DNA of 64,000 bases from Octopus vulgaris (Eukaryota), in NCBI GenBank assembly GCA_951406725.2, contig OX597830.1, positions 1,674,001 to 1,738,000 of the forward strand, in the 5' to 3' direction. Below are positions 1 to 39,300 of the stretch, piece after piece (position 1 is the first letter of the stretch; each line of letters starts with the position of its first letter). The notes under the pieces were generated by a model. It worked only from the letters and a program-made list of their open reading frames with translations. It did not search any database and was not told the DNA's origin. A program made the position numbers and the translations under genes.

Positions 1-40
1 GTCGTGTTCAGCAGTAAATATAGTGATAATACTAATAATA

Positions 41-207
41 ATGGTTTCAAATTTTGCCACAAGGGCCGCAATTTTGGGACAGAGAATGAGTCGATTACAT
101 TGACACCAGTACTCAACTGGTAATTAATTTATCGACCCCGAAAGGATGAACGGCAAAATCGACCTCGGCGGAATTTGAACACAGAATATAATAACAGAAG
201 AAATACC
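41..207 (-). mobile_element. tRNA-derived CORE-type SINE, 3' part (tail type A), interrupted at the head stem-loop
   Basis: Reverse complement carries the B-box GTTCAAATTCC and the core shared with 36157-36385. Tail is ...CCTTGTGGCAAAATTTGAAACCA followed by (TTA)n. Breaks off at AGAAGAAATAC, where the next SINE's 3' end begins. Confidence 0.85.
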
Positions 208-391
208 TATTTCTTTACTACCCACAAGGGGCTAAACATAGAGGGGACAACCAAGGACAGACAAACGGATTAAGTCAATTATATCGACCCCAGTGCGTAA
301 CTGGTACTTAATTTATCGACCCCAAAAGGACGAAAGGCAAAGTCGGCATCGGCGGAATTTGAACCCAGAACGTAACGGAAGACGAAATACG
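208..391 (-). mobile_element. tRNA-derived SINE, 3' part (Tx1-like tail type B); head lies at 5737-5794
   Basis: Colinear with the complete copy at 36157-36385 (B-box, core, tail GCCCCTTGTGGGTAGTAAAGAAATA). Ends at the TSD AGACGAAATACG (380-391). Confidence 0.9.
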
Positions 392-568
392 AATTTCTTT
401 ATTGCCCACCGGGGGCCAAACATAGATATGGACAGTACAACTGATGGGATCAGTGAATCGATATGATTTTACATAAATGTGACATCAAAAATAAAATACA
501 ATACATAAAAATCGAATGGAATACACAGTACAAAAACAATACAAATGAAGCGATGATCAAGTTACGTT

Positions 569-619
569 CCGATCCCACAAGCCCCGATCCCACAAGCCCC
601 GATCCCACAAGCCCCGATC
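569..619 (-). repeat. 15-bp tandem repeat (GGGGCTTGTGGGATC) x3 in the LINE 3' UTR
   Basis: GATCCCACAAGCCCC read directly at 571, 586 and 601 on the plus strand. Confidence 0.95.
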
Positions 620-669
620 TACCGCTGATACCTTTTTATTTTTCCTTTTTTTTTTTTTTCCTCGTCTAT

Positions 670-3600
670 TCACACGGTTCCTTGCACGCACAACACTCGT
701 GCAACATACTTCCATCTCTTTTGGAACGTACACTCTGACAGACCCCTCTTCTCCAGCCACAGTTTCCTTTTCAAATGAAAAGAAAAAAAGGATCGTAAAT
801 TGTCACCAGAGATAAAGTTGCCTGTCTTAATTCCTTTTATCCTAGTCTTCCATACTGCCTCTTTTGCTATTGCTACAACCGTGAGAAAACAATTCTTACC
901 TTCGTTCGTTAGAACTCCCGGTGGGTCAATTTTTATAATTGACTCAGTCGACAGCCGTACTCTTCCTTCGCCGGACAACAGATGTTCAGCATAAGCCCAC
1001 ATTTCAGTTATCTCCGGACACTGAACAATAGCGTGAGAGACGGTTTCCCTATCCCCCCCGCATCTTGGACAGGTCGGCGACTGACGTTTACCATGTCTTG
1101 CGAGCTTATCCCAAACGGGCAAGGCACCTCTGTAGCATTGCCAGGTTAAGGACTTTTGGAAGATGTCCAACGTTCTCAACCCGAATGTACGATGAAACAA
1201 GCTGTCCAGTTGAATAAATCCGAGACCTAGAGTCGACCCCAGGCCATCGTCGCATTCAGACTCTACCCACCCACTATATAAAATCCGTGTGGAACCCCCA
1301 CCGCTGGCGTTGCCCGAGCGCCGGAACAGCAAGAGGGCCTTACGGCAATCTTTATGCCACTCACTCGACCTCGGTCTACGAGAACACCAGGCTTCCTGTT
1401 CGCAAAAACTCTTGAACTCAGGGAACATTTGTCTGGCCAGCGGAGACCACACCCGTTCACTATCCAGGAGAATCCAGAGGTGCCTCAACCTCAACGCATG
1501 TCTGCGCATCATTAACCAAGGCATCCCTAAACCTCCATTTAAAGGCTTTTGACAGCAGACAGAGCGTTTCACAAGTGGCGACCTGCCCTTCCACAAAAAG
1601 CGAAAGAGCTGTCTCTCCAACCTGATCAACCACGAATCCGGACAGGACACGACGGTCAGGCGGTAGGTAATGACCGATGCGATAAACACATTGGCCACTT
1701 CCGCCCTCCCTTTCAGGGATAGCCACCGCCAAGACCAGGTCTTGACTACTGCAGCCACCCTGCTCAATACCTCCGTCCAGTTCTTCTCTATCTGGAGGCC
1801 TGGTCCAAACCAGACTCCCAGCAACTTAACCGGTCCCTCCGTCCAGCGCCTAACAACACTGTCTGAAGGCATCGACTTGCCAACCCAGGTGCCGAGCTGC
1901 AAGCCGACCGACTTTTCCCGGTTAATCTTTGCTCCTGCTACATCCTCGTAAGCCTCAATAGTCTTACCTACTTCACGTAGGCGTGCCACTGTGGTTACAC
2001 TGATAGTGATATCATCCGCGAAAGCCGTAACAAACTCCTCTAGTCCTGTTTCTCTCGGGATGCCACTCAACCTTTGCAGTAATGGCTCGAGAGCCATCAC
2101 ATACAAAAGTGGTGAAAGCGGACATCCTTGACGAACCGAGCGTCTGATGCAGAACGGCTTCGAAAGGAAACCGTTCACCCGAACTATCGAGTCAATGTTG
2201 TGGTACAAAGCGATAAACCACCTGAGGAAGCCAAGGCCCAGGCCAAACCGCGCAAGTACAGTCGCTAGGTATCGATGGTCAACCCTATCAAAAGCTTTAG
2301 ACTGGTCCAAATGCACCAATGCCCCACCTTTGCCAGATTTATTACCAAAACTCTCTATGGTATAGCGAATAAGATGGAGGGTATCCTGAATGGTTCTGCC
2401 TGGGATGGCACATGTCTGCGTCTCCCCGACTATACCATTCGCGACACGCGCCAACCTTTTTGCTAGAACCTTGGCCAAAATCTTCACTTCTGCGTTTAAC
2501 AGAGTGATGGGCCTGGAATTCTCTAGAACGTCCCCCTTGTCCGGGTCCTTTCTGACCAACGTCACTACTCCCCGGCGCACAGATCTGGGGATAAACCCAT
2601 TCTGTTTCCAGTTCGCGTACACGTCAGTCAGTAGTTGCCCGAACAAGTCTGGCATACATTTATACAGCTCGTACGGAAGACCATCAAGTCCCGGTGACTT
2701 ACCCGCTTTACAATCGGCCAAAGCCTCCATCACCTCCTCAGGTGTGATTGACCCTTCGCAAGACTCCGCATCCGACCCCGAGAGGCACGGCAGCCCGGAA
2801 AGAAAGTCCTCGAGGGCTCTCCCACCACCAGGACCGCCGTCACCCCCGAACAGCTGGGCGAAGTACTCCCGAAAGACCTCACACATTTTCTCGGGTTCGT
2901 TTATCAAGACACCATTTTGATTCGTCAAAGACCGAATAGAGGAACTATTTCCTTGCCGAGCTTCCACCACTCGGGCCCATCCAGCGGCTTTGATTCCTTC
3001 ACTTCCCATTGCACGTAACTTAGCTCTGGTAATACTTCCCATGTGGTGGGCTTCAAGATGCTGGTTTAACTCCAGTCTTTTCACCCTCGCTTGGTCTGTA
3101 TTACCAGTCCTCCAGGCTTCTTCTAGTTCCTTAACTAGACCATCTCCTATTTTACGTCCCTTCTTAGCTAAACTTATGCTAAACCTAATAGACTCATATT
3201 TGATGGCTCTTTTTAGGGCGTACCACCATTTGTTATTAATGATGGTACCTGTTAATGCCCTCTGTATTAACATCTTGATCCGCTTTCTGTACTCCTCAAT
3301 CGCCAAAAGGGACGTATTGAGTTTCCAGTAGCCAGATCTCTGTCTATGCAACTTATCTACCGTCAGTTTACAGGTAACCATCTTGTGGTCACTGTAGCTG
3401 ACTAGAAAAAACTGTGGACACTCAACTATGGACTTATCTTTTTCTCTAATTAAAATCCTATCTAGATATGTTCTGGTAGACCCGTCACTATTTGACCACG
3501 TCCACTGTGGAGTGTTCGGGTGCTCCAACCTATATGGATCTGCTAGCTGAAATTGACTTAGCAGATCCCGAAAGCCTGGGTTATATTTTCTGTTCATGTT

Positions 3601-4074
3601 CGAGTTTGAGCCAACACAATCTGTGTGTGCTGCACATATTGTATTAGAGTCTCCTAACACTACTAGTGAATGCGACGTGGCTAGGAACTTTCCTAGGCCA
3701 CGAAAATATTCAGTTTGCGGGCCAATAATGTTTGGTGCGTAAATAGCGACCAGCCTGATTGTCTTGCCACAACTGAATGTCAAGTCGAGAACGACCAGCC
3801 TGCCTTCTGGGTCAGAAAAAACCAACTTTTTCTCGGCTACCCGGTTTCTTTTTAGTAGGACCAACACCCCACCCCCACCTCCCGCCCGACTCGGAGAAAC
3901 GTATTTCTCGTAGCCGTTCAGGAGGGGGAGCAGATCTCTTGGCCCCTTCACTCGGGTTTCCGTTGCAACAATTACATCCAAATTTCTCGACCTGATGTCA
4001 TTCAGAAAGCGTCCTTGCTTCCAGCTTGACAACAGGCCATGAACATTTAAACAACCAATGTGAATAGCCATCAC
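670..4074 (-). CDS. Tx1-like ORF2: APE endonuclease + reverse transcriptase + C-terminal CCHC finger (1134 aa, uninterrupted)
   Basis: EN motifs NVHGL, ET, IYAPN, GDSN, TW, YLDRI, SDH. RT motifs KSPGLDG, RPITLLN, LDQSKAFDRV, VRQGCPLSP, FADD, LLGV. C-terminal CPRC-X7-HAIVQC. Confidence 0.95.
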   Translation of the reverse strand: MMAIHIGCLNVHGLLSSWKQGRFLNDIRSRNLDVIVATETRVKGPRDLLPLLNGYEKYVSPSRAGGGGGVLVLLKRNRVAEKKLVFSDPEGRLVVLDLTFSCGKTIRLVAIYAPNIIGPQTEYFRGLGKFLATSHSLVVLGDSNTICAAHTDCVGSNSNMNRKYNPGFRDLLSQFQLADPYRLEHPNTPQWTWSNSDGSTRTYLDRILIREKDKSIVECPQFFLVSYSDHKMVTCKLTVDKLHRQRSGYWKLNTSLLAIEEYRKRIKMLIQRALTGTIINNKWWYALKRAIKYESIRFSISLAKKGRKIGDGLVKELEEAWRTGNTDQARVKRLELNQHLEAHHMGSITRAKLRAMGSEGIKAAGWARVVEARQGNSSSIRSLTNQNGVLINEPEKMCEVFREYFAQLFGGDGGPGGGRALEDFLSGLPCLSGSDAESCEGSITPEEVMEALADCKAGKSPGLDGLPYELYKCMPDLFGQLLTDVYANWKQNGFIPRSVRRGVVTLVRKDPDKGDVLENSRPITLLNAEVKILAKVLAKRLARVANGIVGETQTCAIPGRTIQDTLHLIRYTIESFGNKSGKGGALVHLDQSKAFDRVDHRYLATVLARFGLGLGFLRWFIALYHNIDSIVRVNGFLSKPFCIRRSVRQGCPLSPLLYVMALEPLLQRLSGIPRETGLEEFVTAFADDITISVTTVARLREVGKTIEAYEDVAGAKINREKSVGLQLGTWVGKSMPSDSVVRRWTEGPVKLLGVWFGPGLQIEKNWTEVLSRVAAVVKTWSWRWLSLKGRAEVANVFIASVITYRLTVVSCPDSWLIRLERQLFRFLWKGRSPLVKRSVCCQKPLNGGLGMPWLMMRRHALRLRHLWILLDSERVWSPLARQMFPEFKSFCEQEAWCSRRPRSSEWHKDCRKALLLFRRSGNASGGGSTRILYSGWVESECDDGLGSTLGLGFIQLDSLFHRTFGLRTLDIFQKSLTWQCYRGALPVWDKLARHGKRQSPTCPRCGGDRETVSHAIVQCPEITEMWAYAEHLLSGEGRVRLSTESIIKIDPPGVLTNEGKNCFLTVVAIAKEAVWKTRIKGIKTGNFISGDNLRSFFSFHLKRKLWLEKRGLSECTFQKRWKYVARVLCVQGTV

Positions 4075-4180
4075 TTACCTGTTTAATTCGGATTGTCCGG
4101 TGGAGGGGGACCCTCCACCTTTTTTTGATCCAGGGTCGGAGGTGGACGGTCTTGGGAAATAGATTTGTCAAAATCCCGTC

Positions 4181-5215
4181 TCACCACCGACACAGAATTA
4201 TCAGGTGGAGGGGGAATCTCCACCTTTTCCTTTTCTCGCGGGATCTCAATGAAGATACAGTCTTTCTGTACTTATTTTGTAGAATTCTATAGGTCTTATT
4301 TGAGACTTCATATATGTCGTAATTGATAAATTCCTCTGAAAGGTTATCAATTTTTTTAACAGTCTTTATGAGTTGAATGTCTCTCATGAGCTCAGTATCT
4401 TTAGTGTATACGGCTATTATGCCTTTTTCTTCTTTTTCTCTTCTGGCAGTCTTTTTTGGTCGTTGTTCTGTAGTAGTCGCCGCTCTCGGCTGGGTTGCTG
4501 GTTGTATTTTTCTTTTGTTTGTTGTTTTTTTCTCATCTGTTTCTTCTTTATCTTCTTCCTCTTTGTCTTTTTTCTCCTCTTCCTCCTCTTCTTCATTTTC
4601 CTTGCAGTTCCTTCGAATATGGCCTAATTGACCACATAAAAAACATCGAGGTTTTCGGCCCTCAACAAACACCACGAGGTTCTCCTCCCCTACCTCAATT
4701 GTCTCAGGAATTGTTTGAATTATTTTAGGGTCCGCTTGAATGAGAAGATTAATTGTTTGACCATCCCAGCGTGGGTTTTCCGTAGCGGTAGCCTGGAGGA
4801 GAGTAATTTTTTCTACCTCTTTGATTAGGACTGCCGCCAACAACCACATAGGTTCGACCTCTGGCGGGACCCTTGTAATTTTTATTCGCGACGTCCTCAT
4901 CCCCATATAATAGGGGATTAACTCCACGTCGTTCGTTTTCAACGTTTCAACTGAGTTCTTGTGTGCTATTTCTTTATTGGTGAACCTTACTTCCACCGTT
5001 CCGAATTTTTTTCCTCTTCTCAGAAATACTACGTCGCCCAGTATTGGCTTTAAGCACTTTTCTATTTTCTCTTCTGACATTCTTTCAATTTTTCTTTTTT
5101 GTAGACAATATGTTTTGAAAATTATTGTTTTTTGCTTTTCTTCCTGTAATAACTTTTGCGGAGGTTCAAGTTTCACACCGTTGTCAGTTATTTCCATCAT
5201 TTTGCTGTATTTCAT
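4181..5215 (-). CDS. Tx1-like ORF1 (gag-like nucleic-acid-binding protein), central part
   Basis: CX2CX4HX4C knuckle CFLCGQLGHIRRNC, then acidic and basic tracts. Lies directly upstream of ORF2. True ends are probably shifted by frameshifts (see findings). Confidence 0.85.
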   Translation of the reverse strand: MKYSKMMEITDNGVKLEPPQKLLQEEKQKTIIFKTYCLQKRKIERMSEEKIEKCLKPILGDVVFLRRGKKFGTVEVRFTNKEIAHKNSVETLKTNDVELIPYYMGMRTSRIKITRVPPEVEPMWLLAAVLIKEVEKITLLQATATENPRWDGQTINLLIQADPKIIQTIPETIEVGEENLVVFVEGRKPRCFLCGQLGHIRRNCKENEEEEEEEKKDKEEEDKEETDEKKTTNKRKIQPATQPRAATTTEQRPKKTARREKEEKGIIAVYTKDTELMRDIQLIKTVKKIDNLSEEFINYDIYEVSNKTYRILQNKYRKTVSSLRSREKRKRWRFPLHLIILCRW

Positions 5216-5595
5216 AATTTCGCTTTTATTCGTCGACAGTATCTGGGTTCCACCCCAGCAGCCAACGCAAAATTTTTTTTTCCATTTTTTGGTTCTATCT
5301 GGATGCTAGGCACATCAATTATTCTCTTCGACACAATGCCTTTGTTCTCTGGCAGAGTCGGAAACTCTTCTGGTGAAAGTTCTGACGAGCTCTCAGACAC
5401 ATCTCCAAAAATATCAAATATATTATCCTCTCTGCTATTCCTTCTTGTAGCGGGGGAAACCCCTATTTCCTTGTCTGTATTTGGCTCCTCGCCGGACATG
5501 TATTTCCTCCTCTCAACAGGAGAAACAAGTATTTCTGCTCCAACGGTAGGCTCCATGCTAGACGACATTCTTCCCCCCAAAGGGGGAATGAACAA
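5212..5595 (-). CDS. Probable N-terminal part of ORF1, separated by a frameshift
   Basis: 127-aa ORF overlapping the ORF1 ATG. The ORF1 frame is open upstream (GGTQILSTNKSEIMK) and could be joined after KNFALAAG at the G-run near 5252-5256. Confidence 0.55.
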   Translation of the reverse strand: MFIPPLGGRMSSSMEPTVGAEILVSPVERRKYMSGEEPNTDKEIGVSPATRRNSREDNIFDIFGDVSESSSELSPEEFPTLPENKGIVSKRIIDVPSIQIEPKNGKKNFALAAGVEPRYCRRIKAKL

Positions 5596-5736
5596 CGCGT
5601 GCTACCACAAGCACTAAGTGTTTTCAATTGAAAACTCCAACAGTTAAGTTATTCAACAGTTTAACAAGAAACAACAGTTGTTAACAATATTAACACCACG
5701 AAACAGCAATTCTTACTTCACGAACACATGTGCAAC

Positions 5737-5794
5737 AGACGAAATACGGCTACGCATTTCGCCCAGCGTGCTAAAGTTTCTGCCAGCTCGCCGC
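5737..5794 (-). mobile_element. 5' head (A-box region) of the SINE interrupted by the Tx1 element
   Basis: Reverse complement GCGGCGAGCTGGCAGAAACTTTAGCACGCTGGGCGAAATGCGTAGCCGTATTTCGTCT matches the head at 36160-36218. Confidence 0.9.
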
Positions 5795-5803
5795 TTTCAT
5801 TTG

Positions 5804-5856
<53 letters not shown>

Positions 5857-6292
5857 CTACTCAATACCACAGACTTGCTTGTCAGTTGTTTGACCATAAC
5901 CGGATGAACGTTTCCCTTAGTGGCTGACGATATGTGCATCTCTGATCACGAGAAGTAGTGAGGGAATATCATAGCCATGTGTTGAGGGAAATTTTACGGG
6001 ATTTGAATAATTCACCTTTGGAAACAGGGGCATTTCGTTCAATATCTTTTAACAATCCTTATTGAGGTTCCTTTTGAGCTGGATGAGTTACTCGACCTGA
6101 AAAAAATTCTGAGCCCCACCTGCAAGGTCATGCACTGTTTATCTTGATATGAGATCACCATGACGGGTACATGACTGGTTGTGATGCATGTGCCTTGTGT
6201 ACCCTTATCAGACAGGCAGTGATGATGGGTATACAGGGCTTCTTATATTTTAACCCAGTGTCACTTTGATGGCATGCACTGCTCTCTCACTC
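5857..6292 (+). mobile_element. 5'-truncated 3' end of a Dong/R4-like LINE, embedded in (AAT)n
   Basis: Colinear with 31206-31669. Preceded by (AAT)n (5803-5856) and ends CTCTCTCACTC + (AAT)n. Confidence 0.7.
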
Positions 6293-7373
6293 AATAATAA
6301 TAAGTTAGCCGCATCGGATATCGATCGGATTTGATCTCAGAACCGAAACGAATGTAATTAAATGCCTACGCAGAGAGATAAATGGTGATTTAGGCGATCT
6401 TCCCATTATATGCGACAGGAATGGTAATAGAATTTTTATACAACAGCACCACATGTAAAAGCCGACTCGGGGCAGAAAGGAATCAGCTTTGAGTATAAAA
6501 GTGAACTTGTGTTAGATTATTTAGCTGATGTTTAAAATCTTTTACGCTGATGGAATAAATGGTTTGTCAACCTATTCCAAATCCAGATACATCTCAACCA
6601 AGTAAATATGTATTTGCATTAAATAGCAAAAAACATCGATCTGTAAGAGAAGCATATTTATTTGCTCATCTGTCTCGTAATATTGATGTTCTCCGATCCA
6701 TTAATGCACCTCACCACCTCAGACTCTTACAGACATCGAGAAGGCAAATATTTATAACGTTAATTAACTTTAAAATGTAGTTCAGCAACAACAACGTTTA
6801 TCTTTATTCTACTTCTTCCAACTAGAAATGTGCGCTGTGTGTGTGTGTGTGTGCATATATATATATATATATATATGCACACACACACACACACACACAG
6901 GTGTACTTATAGATCTTTTATGCCATAAGAATTTAGAAAGTTTGAGAGACGTGTAATATTTAGATTACAGCAATGGAACTCGAAACATAAATCTGTGAGT
7001 AATAGTCTTCGACTTGTTTTTTTTTCTATCTAAAGGGTTTCTTAACCCAATATTTCCACGCTTTTATAGCTGTACCTACTTCGAATTAAAAACGAATCCT
7101 GCAGACAAGCATGCCGACATACATATATACTGACATACATTACGTACATACACATAAATAAAGAGAAAACTGGAAAAATGTTTTATTTAATCCGCATTAC
7201 ATATGTTACGTTATTAATAGGAGTGACGCAGGTATACATGTCCTGTCTGTAATTCTTCAGATAGAAAACTAAACTATTATTTTAATTCTTGCTCAGAAGA
7301 ATTACTTATAGGAGATGGTTTACTTGTTTTTCTCCTTGAATATTTATGTGACTATTATTACTAAAGCCTATAC

Positions 7374-31159: not shown

Positions 31160-31205
<46 letters not shown>

Positions 31206-31208
<3 letters not shown>

Positions 31209-31669
31209 GATGGGCTACAGCAAATATTCTGCTCAATACCACATATTTGCTTGTCAGTTGTTTGACCTTAAACGGTTGAGCATGTCCCTTAGTGGCTGAC
31301 GATATGTGCTTCTCTGATCACGAGCAGAAGTAGTGGGGGAGCATCATAGCCATGTGTTGAGAGGGATTCTTTGGGGTTTGAATAATTCACCTCTGGAAAC
31401 TTAGGTGGTTCTTTCAACATCCTTAAACAACCCTTATTGAGGGACCTTTTGAGCGGGATGGGCTACTCAACCTGAAGAAAATTCTAACTGGGCCCCACCT
31501 GCAAGGTCATGCACTGTTTATCTTGATATGAGACCACCATGTCGCGCACATATGGTTGTGATGCATGTGCCTGGTGTACCCTTATCAGACGGGTAGTCAT
31601 GATGGGTATATTGGACTTCGTATATTTTACCCCAGTGTCACTTTGATGGCATGAACTGCTCTCTCACTC
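31206..31669 (+). mobile_element. 3' end of a second Dong/R4-like family in (AAT)n
   Basis: Second copy of 5857-6292. Starts with ATGGGC(T)ACAGCAAATATTCTG = MGTANIL, matching the ORF end MGTAHIL of the neighbouring element. (AAT)n on both sides. Confidence 0.7.
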
Positions 31670-31717
<48 letters not shown>

Positions 31718-34868: not shown

Positions 34869-36156
34869 CATGCGTTCATAAACGTATATATACATGCATA
34901 ACTAAATCGCTGAGTGCGAGGCAGAAATTAATGAGAAAATGATCGAGGGATTGCGATAAGATACTGAGAGACTCTGAGAGAGAGAGAGAGAAAGAGGGAG
35001 AGGAGAACGGTGAAGTAAGCCACGTTGGCTCTCTTGAAGCTACTAATGTTGTTCTATGTAAAATATACATGTATGAATGATTACACAGAGAATTTGGCTG
35101 ATTTACATTTTTGATATCTTAACAGGACACTGAACAGAATAGAGATTCGCGCTAAGTCACTAAATCTGTGCATCTTAATTTTGAGAAAATCGGAATAAAT
35201 TATATTTTATAGCTATAAAAATATGTAAGTAATTTTATTTCTGTTCACAATTACTGAATTATAGAAAGATTAAGTCAGCCCCACATACTCAATGGCAGAG
35301 TGATAGAAGCACGCACATAACCAGACATGCAAATATATGTGTGTGTGTGTGTGTATTTATACTTTTACATAAATGCATATTTATATACACACGCAAACTG
35401 CTGCAGACATCGATACATGTGTATATGTATGTGTATGTTTCTCTGTATATATGTACGTATATATGAATGGATGGATGTATAGATGCATATTTGTGCATCT
35501 GTTTGTGGTTTTATCTATGTAAATGATGTATATGCTTGTATATATGACTGTATATAAACGTATATGCATGTGCATATATATACATAGACATACTTTCATG
35601 TGTTTGTATTTATATAAATATGTATGTGTGTGTGTATGTGTGTGAGAATTTGTTTCGTCCCGGAGAGAGGTCGCCATTTAAAATGTTTAGTTGCCATAAA
35701 AATGATATTATTTCTAATAATGGTTGTTTATGGTTTATATTTCTAGACAGCATGCAGTGTAACAGGTTTATTTAACAGCATTCACTTTCGTGTATTCGGG
35801 GTTTCGCTTGTGCCACTTGTTGTTATTGTTGTTATTGACATTGTGGGGGGTGATGGTGGTGAGCAGAGGACAAGATGATTGTAAAATAGAGGTAATTATG
35901 CAACATTAGTGGTCTTATAATTTGGTGTTCAAACTTGTTTAACAGTAGTGTAAACGTGGATCGAATACGAATTATTTTTAGTGTGGAGGGATCTGAGTGG
36001 ATGTCTATTGGTTCAGAGGATGATTCCAAGAATTGTTTGATAACTTCAGTTTCTCTCACAAATGAAGAAGATACAATGCGTTGGTCTCATACTTCTTTTA
36101 GTCTTAGTGACCCAGTCCCGGAGAATGTAACAGTACTCTTGATCTTCACAAATTCT

Positions 36157-36385
36157 AGGGCGGCGAGCTGGTTGAAGCGTTAGCACGCCGGGCGAAATGC
36201 GTGGCCGTATTTCGTCTGCCGTTACATTCTGAGTTCAAATTCCGCCGAGGTCGACTTTACCTTTCATCCTTTCGGGGTCGATAAATTAAGTACCAGTTAC
36301 GCACTGGGGTCGATGTAATCGACTTAATCCCTTTGTCCTTGTTTGTCCACTCTATGTTTAGCCCCTTGTGGGTAGTAAAGAAATA
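36157..36385 (+). mobile_element. Complete young CORE-type tRNA SINE with Tx1-like tail and 16-bp TSD
   Basis: Perfect TSD GATCTTCACAAATTCT at 36141-36156 and 36386-36401. A-box-like head, B-box GAGTTCAAATTCC, tail GCCCCTTGTGGGTAGTAAAGAAATA with no poly-A. Confidence 0.93.
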
Positions 36386-39300
36386 GATCTTCACAAATTC
36401 TCTCTTTCCCCTTCAGCCCTAAGACATGTTAGATAGACGGGTTTAGCTAGTGATTTTCTGGAATTGCTGCAAAGGGACGAGTTCGTTTGCACAGGGAAAG
36501 CACTTCCTCCGAACGGGACTCTCATACCAAGTACCTTAGGAGGTTGGGTAGATTTATTTTCTTTATACATGCTATAAACAGCAGCAAAACTAATATTCCA
36601 ATAATTAACAATCAGGATGTATTCACTCAATTTCCTTGAAACAGCAAATCTTCTACAAATCGTATCCCACCGCCAGGAAACAACCAATTGTCTAACGTAA
36701 TTCGAGATACGTTGAGGTAGGAAAAAGAAATACAATAATATGAATATAGATTGACGCCATTTAGCTACAGCTATGCTTAGGTGGCCTAGGGCTAAAAAGC
36801 AACAACAACATAATTTTCATCCTTCATTGGATGTATCTCTCTCTCACACACATACGCACACTCAAACATGTGCACAAATACTCATGTATATTTACAGATA
36901 TATATAATAAAATACGCTGGATATATATATGATAAAAGCGCACGAGTGGAGAGAGATAGGGAGAGAGAGGGGGAGAGAGAAGAAGAAGAAGAAGAAGAAG
37001 AAGACGGAGGAGGAAGAGGAGGGGGAGGAGGAGGAGAAGAAAGAAAAAAGAAAGGCAGGGAAGGGAAAAGTTTGGTAAATCTTCAAACTTCCGCAAGTTT
37101 TTGTGGGAAATATTTGAAAACAAAAAATCCACGAAAATGCCTGGAAAAGAAATATAAAAGCAGTCGGGTGAGAAATAATTTGTTTGAGGATAGGACCGCA
37201 GCTATAAGTATTTGAACTATAACTATTTTAGCTATAACTATTTTAACTACATGCCTATCGAAATATTTCCTGAATTTGGGTCTTTGTAAGAAATGATTTT
37301 GTATTGAATTTAAGAATAATTTAGTTGTATTTTACCAAGTATTGAGTTAGAAGGGGAGTGCAAACCAAAACAAAATGAGATCGTCGGTATACGCGCTGTC
37401 AAGCAAACTCATGCTCACATCAAATGTGCGCTATGGATCTGACTTATTCATCCAAGCTGCGCTATTGCCATAGAGTAGGGCCTTTCTAACATAAATCTGA
37501 TCTCTATGCTTGTGGCTTATGAACGTATAGAACTTACTTCTCTGATATGTCAACATAACCAAAAACCTGTCTGAATGCATTTCCTCATTACCCTAAAACA
37601 GTACATGTCAAAGCTTCTGTCTTTCCAAAACTCATGAGATACCTCTCCCTCGCCAGGGACACATGATATAGCTTTCATAGTGAAATCTTTACAGTAGTTG
37701 TTATCCTTTGAGACCTGCTAATGTCTGCTCCAGCCTGAGAACTTTGGCAACATCAGTGAGGTTTCATTTGACACTTTACATCGACAAAACATCTCTTCCA
37801 CAAAACCATAAGATTAAAACTGTCCAATTATAAATCCTATTTCCTTTTGCTGGCAGCCTCTTGGTAGTCCAGAGTATTCCATCATATACCTATTAAACCC
37901 ACTGTCTGATTCCTGGGGCCTCGAATGCTTTAAGCTAGTGGTTTTCAAGTGGAATCTCAAAGTTGTTATATAGAATATATAGAATCTCTGGCGAATCTCT
38001 TGTAAAAATTCTCATCTTAGTCAGTGCTAAAGCAAAATTACAAATCCTGGTATTTCGTTTTTAAATTCGGGGCCTGCATCAACTTTGTTCAATGATCTCC
38101 CTGTTGCAAGTTCAAGTAATAACTACAGGTAGGATGGTGCTTTCTGCACTGGTATCTATCAAGACGTTTGGTACCCTCGATCTCCGAGCATAAGATATGG
38201 CATCCAAGAAAAGAAACCTGTGGTGTAGACCAGCTGTTGTGGCGTTCATCATTCATTTTTGTTCATAGCAACATATTTTCTAACCTGTTTTAATCGCAAA
38301 GATGAGAAAAAATCATTCCACAGAAAATGTAAAAGTTGCTTATTTATTTCAGCAAATTAGGATCACTGCTTCGAAATAATACGGATTGCTTGAATGATCT
38401 TAATTCATCGGGGTTTTTCAACTCACTACATATTTGAGGCCCTACCGTTGTTGTAATTAGTATACAGATCACTACATGTGATATGTGGTATAAAAGAAAA
38501 TGCAAGCTGTAAGGTTATTGCCACAGGAAACACACCTATTTCTATACAGTGATTTTAATATTCTATCTAATACTTCTGCTTTGTTTGTTACTCAAAATAT
38601 TCCAGTGCCTCTTTTGAGTGTTGATGTTTCACTTTATATTATATATATATATATATATTGCATCGTCTAAGCCACACAAACTCACCAATTATCTGGTAGA
38701 ACATGTCTGCCTTTTATCAAAACAGCAACCCACCTACTCTCTAGTTAGTGCACCAAAGATTATTATTACATTTTAAATGGCTTTCAAATAAATAGCTTTT
38801 AAAACCATTTCGTTGCCACTACATATTTTCCTTTAAATATATATATATAATTTTTTTATAAAACACCAACCTAAACAATCTCTTTCATGCATGTTTCCTA
38901 TAAATTAGTAATAAAATATTCATAGATATCTGAACTGAAATATAAAAAACAAAATAAGAACATAAATACATAGGCCAACATCTATCAGACTTCAATAACA
39001 ACATTACCATTAAAATACAACTTCACTTCTAATAGAACCATTAAAGAAAGAACAAAGCAAGAAACCAAAAATGTTTCCACAATCTATGAACTATTAATCA
39101 CCTATTGATCTTTTCTAACTAAAAAAAAAAAAAAAGATGGTTTCACGACTAGTCTCTCCATATAATCTTAGAACGATTCTTTTTAATTTATAATCTGATA
39201 CCAACTTGTCTTAGCAGAGAGAAGGACATAAAATAAAAACATTTTAAAATATTAAATAAGATAACATGAAAAATTATTTAAAACAAAAAAAGGTTTGCCA

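Follow-up and report, generated by a model that had tools for sequence, protein, structure and literature searches.

A Tx1-like LINE of Octopus vulgaris inserts in the head of an abundant SINE that carries a homologous, poly-A-free 3' tail

Target-sequence specificity is common in the Tx1 clade of LINEs, and sequence-specific elements include Tx1L in Tx1D (Xenopus), Keno (U2), and Kibi and Koshi (microsatellites) (PMC4494074). In crocodilians, Tx1-Mar LINEs and SINEU, a SINE that ends in poly-A, share a target inside Mariner (Kojima 2015, PMC4494074); in that account, different LINE families serve different SINE subsets, and the partnership is argued from the shared target. It is thus already known both that Tx1 elements can target other repeats and that they can drive SINEs (PMC4494074). 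Also known are L1-clade tails shared with three plant and algal SINEs, in the stringent pairs of maize (ZmSINE2/3 with LINE1-1_ZM) and Chlamydomonas (SINEX-3_CR with L1-1_CR), for which a common 3' end of ~45 nt and a hairpin with a compensatory change are described (PMC3747384, PMC3472496). For Octopus vulgaris, 13 recently active L1-Tx1 families have been listed in a report whose main text is silent on their targets (PMC13282606).

We analyzed a 64,000-nt stretch of Octopus vulgaris DNA (the window) together with copies of its repeats in the genome (2.80 Gb). As in the Tx1-Mar/SINEU system, a Tx1-like LINE and its putative passenger SINE share one target inside an interspersed repeat. Unlike in that system, where the repeat is the Mariner DNA transposon, the target here is the passenger SINE's own family, and unlike SINEU with its poly-A, this SINE has a tail homologous to that of the LINE and no poly-A (PMC4494074). 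The LINE resembles Tx1L, Keno, Kibi, and Koshi in being an L1-group, AP-endonuclease element with sequence-specific insertion; the account of those four names no SINE as a target and none that shares their tail (PMC4494074). Relative to the maize and Chlamydomonas pairs as described, the present case comes from an animal, lacks poly-A, and involves a tail found in at least four families (PMC3747384, PMC3472496). A Tx1-tailed SINE targeted to itself did not appear in the literature that we searched, and Repbase, Dfam, and the repeat library of PMC13282606 could contain these families.

Table 1. Positions of the LINE, its reading frames, and the associated SINE parts in the window
Feature	Positions	Strand	Basis
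Older headless SINE body with another tail, from SINE position 47/48 directly after the tail (left end approximate)	33..207	-	
Interrupted SINE: body plus LINE-like tail (242-208)	208..391	-	91% over 185 nt to 36206-36386
Target duplication, 3' copy, CGTATTTCGTCT in element sense, SINE positions 47-58	380..391	-	sequence
LINE 3' tail, poly-A-free, also found on the SINE; 4-bp hairpin predicted at 416-404	392..434	-	
Tx1-like (L1 group) LINE, full-length, young subfamily	392..5733	-	ORFs and domains; both ends set by genomic copies
ORF2, 1133 aa, open; AP-endonuclease, reverse transcriptase, zf-RVT	670..4071	-	ORF list, Pfam
ORF1, one CCHC knuckle; two reading frames in the window copy	4181..5601	-	zf-CCHC, E 5.6e-05
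SINE head hit by the LINE, positions 1-59, including the A-box-like part	5736..5794	-	90% to the intact SINE head at 36160
Target duplication, 5' copy, 12 bp	5737..5748	-	sequence
Solitary intact SINE, LINE-like tail, no poly-A; 16-bp duplication at 36141-36156 and 36386-36401	36157..36385	+	sequence

Judged by its encoded proteins, the LINE belongs to the L1 group, as the initial annotation had it. ORF2 has Exo_endo_phos, RVT_1, and zf-RVT domains (Pfam), and its closest solved structure is human L1 ORF2p (E 5.5e-62; R2, E 1.3e-20), so that the AP-endonuclease and a reverse transcriptase nearest to L1 both support the assignment. The zf-CCHC domain of ORF1 lies upstream of ORF2, and a CCHC-knuckle ORF1 in this position is a trait of Tx1-type elements. 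We label the LINE Tx1-like on account of its L1-group reverse transcriptase, its CCHC ORF1, and its target specificity, the tree having been built without named Tx1 references; the ESM Atlas and a protein search returned no clade name. Copies of the young subfamily are 98.4% alike (91 pairs). In the 3' UTR of the window LINE a 15-bp unit is repeated (window 569-620), and most other copies are ~30 bp shorter there. Four runs, under as many organism codes, yield contigs over the LINE, and one contig joins the LINE 5' end to the SINE head; these contigs are uninformative on transcription. Another repeat pair in the window (5804-6303 and 31164-31680, 85% over 519 nt) ends in (ATT)n and abuts the SINE head.

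The window LINE lies between a SINE head and a SINE body, and this arrangement recurs throughout the genome. We found 67 copies of the exact LINE tail (66 distinct sites once one duplicated pair was merged), and SINE position 47/48 follows the tail directly in 62 of the 66. One of the remaining sites continues into the same target at another LINE's 5' end and three into other DNA, one of these three being a SINE body with the LINE tail. For a set chosen independently of the tail, we used as query the older-variant 3' UTR upstream of the tail (36 matches, 30 fetched); 21/30 of these ends are at the SINE site, 5/30 at the regenerated site of another LINE, and 4/30 at other sequence. Six copies abut DNA downstream that encodes older-subfamily ORF1 (3 tested) and are therefore LINE-LINE tandems. 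Head-to-tail tandems of this kind, at a regenerated target, are seen at L153, L231, L234, L237, L238, and L239. The 5' region of the older subfamily is itself divergent, its ORF1 being just 40-50% identical to that of the young subfamily. In the SINE head, an inverted repeat of 12-13 bp (window 36190-36219; DNA fold z -1.81; 9/200 shuffles) has the target site at the edge of its loop. Partial complementarity between tail and target, seen by eye, was set aside because the same tail end occurs in families with other targets.

An arrangement this regular could also mean that head, LINE, and SINE body form one composite mobile unit whose targeting is merely inherited. A SINE head precedes 30/30 fetched full-length LINE 5' ends (two being one duplicated locus), and heads of the C type (head variants carry G or C at the cut) occur in 34/34 paired full-length young copies vs 42/139 free heads (p 3e-15), as such a unit would lead one to expect; selection of matching targets accounts for part of this pattern equally well. 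Three of the 34 paired copies have a C-type head over an old-type body. Differences between the two target duplications (32 pairs: 1 shared by both ends, 4 only at the 5' end, 7 only at the 3' end) are mostly unshared, which suggests that a few target bases travel with the RNA, a point also counted for the composite unit; at tandem LINE fronts, one variant base within the site is common to 4/5. These patterns hint at a LINE RNA with some bases of the target at either end. The composite unit is nevertheless contradicted by eight 5'-truncated young copies with a SINE head upstream (L030, L126, L131, L134, L140, L143, L145, and L154; two of them only ~40 nt long, with head joints that vary in position). 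Since 5'-truncated copies cannot carry a head, the head upstream of them is target. Moreover, in a comparison of 20 young copies, after three with rearranged flanks had been set aside, the last 150 nt of the LINE are 99.5% alike, whereas the next 150 nt, which are SINE, are 85.5% alike, with 0/190 pairs above 97%. Thus, the SINE is the target and not a part of the element, and we consider a composite unit very improbable.

Heads are scarcer in older copies. Among those at the SINE site, the upstream junction is visible in 16: 2 have an adjoining head, 2 have internal deletions, and 12 are headless, these 12 showing no flanking duplication around LINE plus SINE; the young truncated copies L127 and L142 are also headless. 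The headless older copies could owe their state to target DNA having been lost where the 5' end is truncated, or to insertions that came later. Transduction of 3' sequence is not supported as their origin: a duplication flanking LINE plus SINE was found in 0/18 head-poor copies (control 2/67), a count that also speaks against the composite unit.

The LINE and the SINE share not only a site but a 3' end. The initial annotation matched 209-242 to 393-426 at 29 of 34 positions and placed the same tail at 36351-36384; recomputation gave 29/34, and 36351-36384, once reverse-complemented, is identical to 209-242 (34/34). Both 209-242 and 393-426 are 3' ends on the minus strand, their match, 83% identical, extends over ~42 nt (window-level E 6e-6), and older variants of the LINE and SINE tails are 30-31/34 identical. 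That this poly-A-free tail is the true 3' end of the LINE was borne out by the UTR-selected copies of the older subfamily, of which 30/30 enter the tail (one with a deletion inside the hairpin) and 0/30 have poly-A. Genomic copies that share the tail end rule out that 392-430 is a chance match or a separate short SINE fragment. Across 96 ends (the exact-tail and UTR-chosen sets, with 7 sites common to both), no A run near the tail end exceeds 4 in 94/96, and the maximum is 7 in the other 2/96. At locus L147, a SINE body ends in the exact LINE-type tail, which suggests tail exchange.

Octopus SINEs were reportedly described by Ohshima and Okada in 1994. The SINE studied here fits the short, high-copy class flanked by target duplications: its exact tail occurs 6205 times genome-wide, and a duplication of at least 10 nt flanks 40/68 SINEs off the LINE site vs 15/670 mismatched controls. 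The 37 duplications that are not A/T-only measure 11-27 nt (median 16), and 32 of them start at or one base past the tail end. Of the features expected of a tRNA-derived head, an A-box-like word lies at SINE positions 10-20, and a B-box-like word, recognized by eye and one base off the search pattern, near 73-83; an Rfam search of the head gave no match up to E 10. The LINE target word directly follows 1937/6205 (31%) of the exact SINE tails in the LINE's register, with 0 in the reversed control. A second, independent sign of partnership is therefore supported, namely that LINE and SINE share an insertion site in the same register. SINE tails joined at this site give headless tandem arrays. 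A sample of 96 SINE tails, drawn entirely from the opening 50 Mb of contig C1, comprises 28 at the site, 3 in one full-length tandem, and 65 elsewhere. In a second, minor junction (L015, L113, L132, L137, L144, L249, and L284), the tail runs into SINE position 15, and the two sides share a short word where they meet.

Other LINE families end in the same way. Family 2, found by a search with a relative's sequence, has 55% ORF2 identity, and at 30/30 of its loci the end is a homologous tail that adjoins (TATC)n, a target comparable to the microsatellites described for Kibi and Koshi (PMC4494074). Its members (L251-L280, e.g. L252, L265) are young, with ORF2 intact, and tails of other families are stacked in the same (TATC)n tracts (L254, L276). 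Families 3 and 4 came to light in flanking sequence, and 30 loci of each were sampled (L287-L316 and L317-L346); their ORF2 identity to the window LINE is 70% and 64%, and both have the same tail, other targets, and the exact five-base SINE loop. Downstream of family 3 ends lie two or three repeats that recur, and downstream of family 4 ends mostly a short GGATG-like word. In a 17-row tree of this genome's families and unnamed proteins, families 1, 3, and 4 cluster (98/100). At least four families whose targets differ and whose ORF2 identities are 55-70% thus have a homologous tail, and tail recognition is likely clade-wide, as judged from these sequences, because three sister families with other targets carry the tail.

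These families bear directly on the claim, made in the initial annotation, that the LINE is the autonomous partner of the tail-B SINEs, that is, on a one-to-one stringent pair in which the LINE family donated the tail and moves all of these SINEs. The close identity of the two tails, closer still between older variants, their common junction register, and the SINE body with an exact LINE tail at L147 are what such a pair would produce. However, the three sister families match the SINE tail as well or better, families 3 and 4 with the SINE's exact loop; over the last 46 nt of the SINE, the window LINE matches 37 positions, the older subfamily 39, family 3 37-41, and family 4 38-39. A pattern guessed for a LINE that would end in precisely the SINE tail had given 6 matches, all SINEs, and the closer tails came from the survey of loci. 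In addition, 65/96 sampled SINE tails lie outside the LINE site while the LINE itself is rarely outside it, and only 15 exact SINE tails are followed by the base of the young subfamily vs 1937 by that of the older. The partner claim is therefore not supported as worded, and we regard a one-to-one pair as improbable. The tail alone does not identify its donor, and by these matches the window LINE is not the best candidate.

The initial annotation had further proposed that both tails keep a GCCC/GGG(C/U) stem. A minimum-energy fold does predict this stem for both, as the same hairpin with a 4-bp stem and a 5-base loop, but the two tails argue only faintly for calling the end structured, because both have folding energies typical of shuffles (z 0.10 and 0.45). 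RNAalifold on 18 tails recovered the same 4 pairs, with 94% of alignment cells paired. Covariation, which the initial annotation suggested looking for, was found to the extent that one pair of this alignment has changed on both sides, but 47/500 shuffles reach its score; the change is a C-G to G-C flip within family 4, and family 2 tails break the covarying pair unless the register slips. Old-type SINE tails, presumably homologous to the LINE-like tail, carry an identical loop word on a stem with pairs flipped, and their middle pair is kept in 53/55 (0/2000 shuffles), the 55 being related tails chosen by the loop word from 145. We consider the predicted tail hairpin likely to be real. A second hairpin, ~25 nt upstream of the tail (window 459-447, minus strand; also in the 3' UTRs of L035 and L151), is conserved among the LINE families, one pair being apparently compensatory, and is absent from the SINE tail.

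The base that follows the tail (SINE position 47) distinguishes the LINE subfamilies, being C for the young subfamily and mostly G for the older. SINE arrays have G after the tail in 74/83 cases, and G-type heads are found in 36/39 arrays vs 55/100 solitary SINEs (p 2e-5). From these heads and junctions, and from the mere 15 C junctions, the older subfamily (G at 47) is likely the maker of most SINE arrays, and the young subfamily of the window is probably a minor SINE carrier.

In form, a full head followed by headless units, the arrays are like those of Scapharca broughtonii (PMC11481361) and the squamate SINE satellites (PMC10702118); no site-specific LINE is tied to those arrays in the accounts given, whereas the junction here is the LINE's target nucleotide. 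One could accordingly suppose that the LINE only invades the SINE, that sister families move the SINE, and that arrays arise by read-through of a few multimer masters or by tandem duplication. The nearest loop is that of families 3 and 4, SINE-derived tandem repeats formed by recombination are described (PMC10702118), as are headless clam arrays (PMC11481361), and some of our arrays have near-identical units: B-B arrays of near-identical units (L070, L090, L190) can come from duplication or read-through, and the trimer at L070 has a duplication around the whole array. Against this stand the junctions, which fall on the LINE's own nucleotide, and the diversity of downstream units, which derive from several older tail types. 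The 23 old-type bodies that follow a LINE-like tail are 78.6% alike on average (maximum 90.5%) and therefore reflect separate events and not one master dimer. Furthermore, 0/59 other ends of families 3 and 4 lie at the SINE site (60 loci shown), and the first head is C-type in 8/14 arrays with a C junction base. A LINE that only invades the SINE is thus an unlikely account of the data.

We conclude, with a probability of roughly three in four, that a Tx1-like LINE uses, almost exclusively, one position in the SINE head for its insertions, and that several members of its clade likely copy this abundant SINE by way of the tail, since the SINE tail is homologous to those of the LINE and its sister families. 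We infer stringent tail recognition by the LINE clade. In the mechanism that we propose, the ORF2 endonuclease would nick at SINE position 46/47, and ORF2 would bind the short 3' hairpin and begin reverse transcription at the tail end. SINE RNA carried by the window LINE's family would land in the head of another SINE, where the end of the SINE cDNA would pair with the matching head upstream to give a head-body-tail-body array with 184-bp units; when sister families are the carriers, or when microhomology does the priming, SINE RNA would land at other sites. The older subfamily (G at 47) would make most SINE-in-SINE junctions, and the young subfamily would favor C-type heads.

More tentatively, and with considerable doubt on our part, we postulate that the LINE both farms and polices its own parasite. 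It would amplify the SINE, use each copy as a safe landing site, and silence that copy by landing between the A and B boxes. LINE RNA might run from the SINE head into the SINE body, so that both junctions would be RNA-templated and the target regenerated for the next LINE or SINE, and LINE subfamilies and head variants (G vs C at the cut) might chase each other over time.

If our main reading is true, an animal L1-group lineage joins a very short list of lineages with tail-dependent, poly-A-free choice of RNA, and such an animal case bears on whether stringent recognition, discussed in PMC3747384, is ancestral for L1. A passenger whose target is its own family would close a loop that we did not find in the literature searched, and it would offer a concrete mechanism for headless SINE arrays. 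Finally, close families with one tail and different targets (the SINE head, (TATC)n, and others), some of them young and with open ORF2, would form a natural series in which recognition of RNA can be separated from targeting of DNA.
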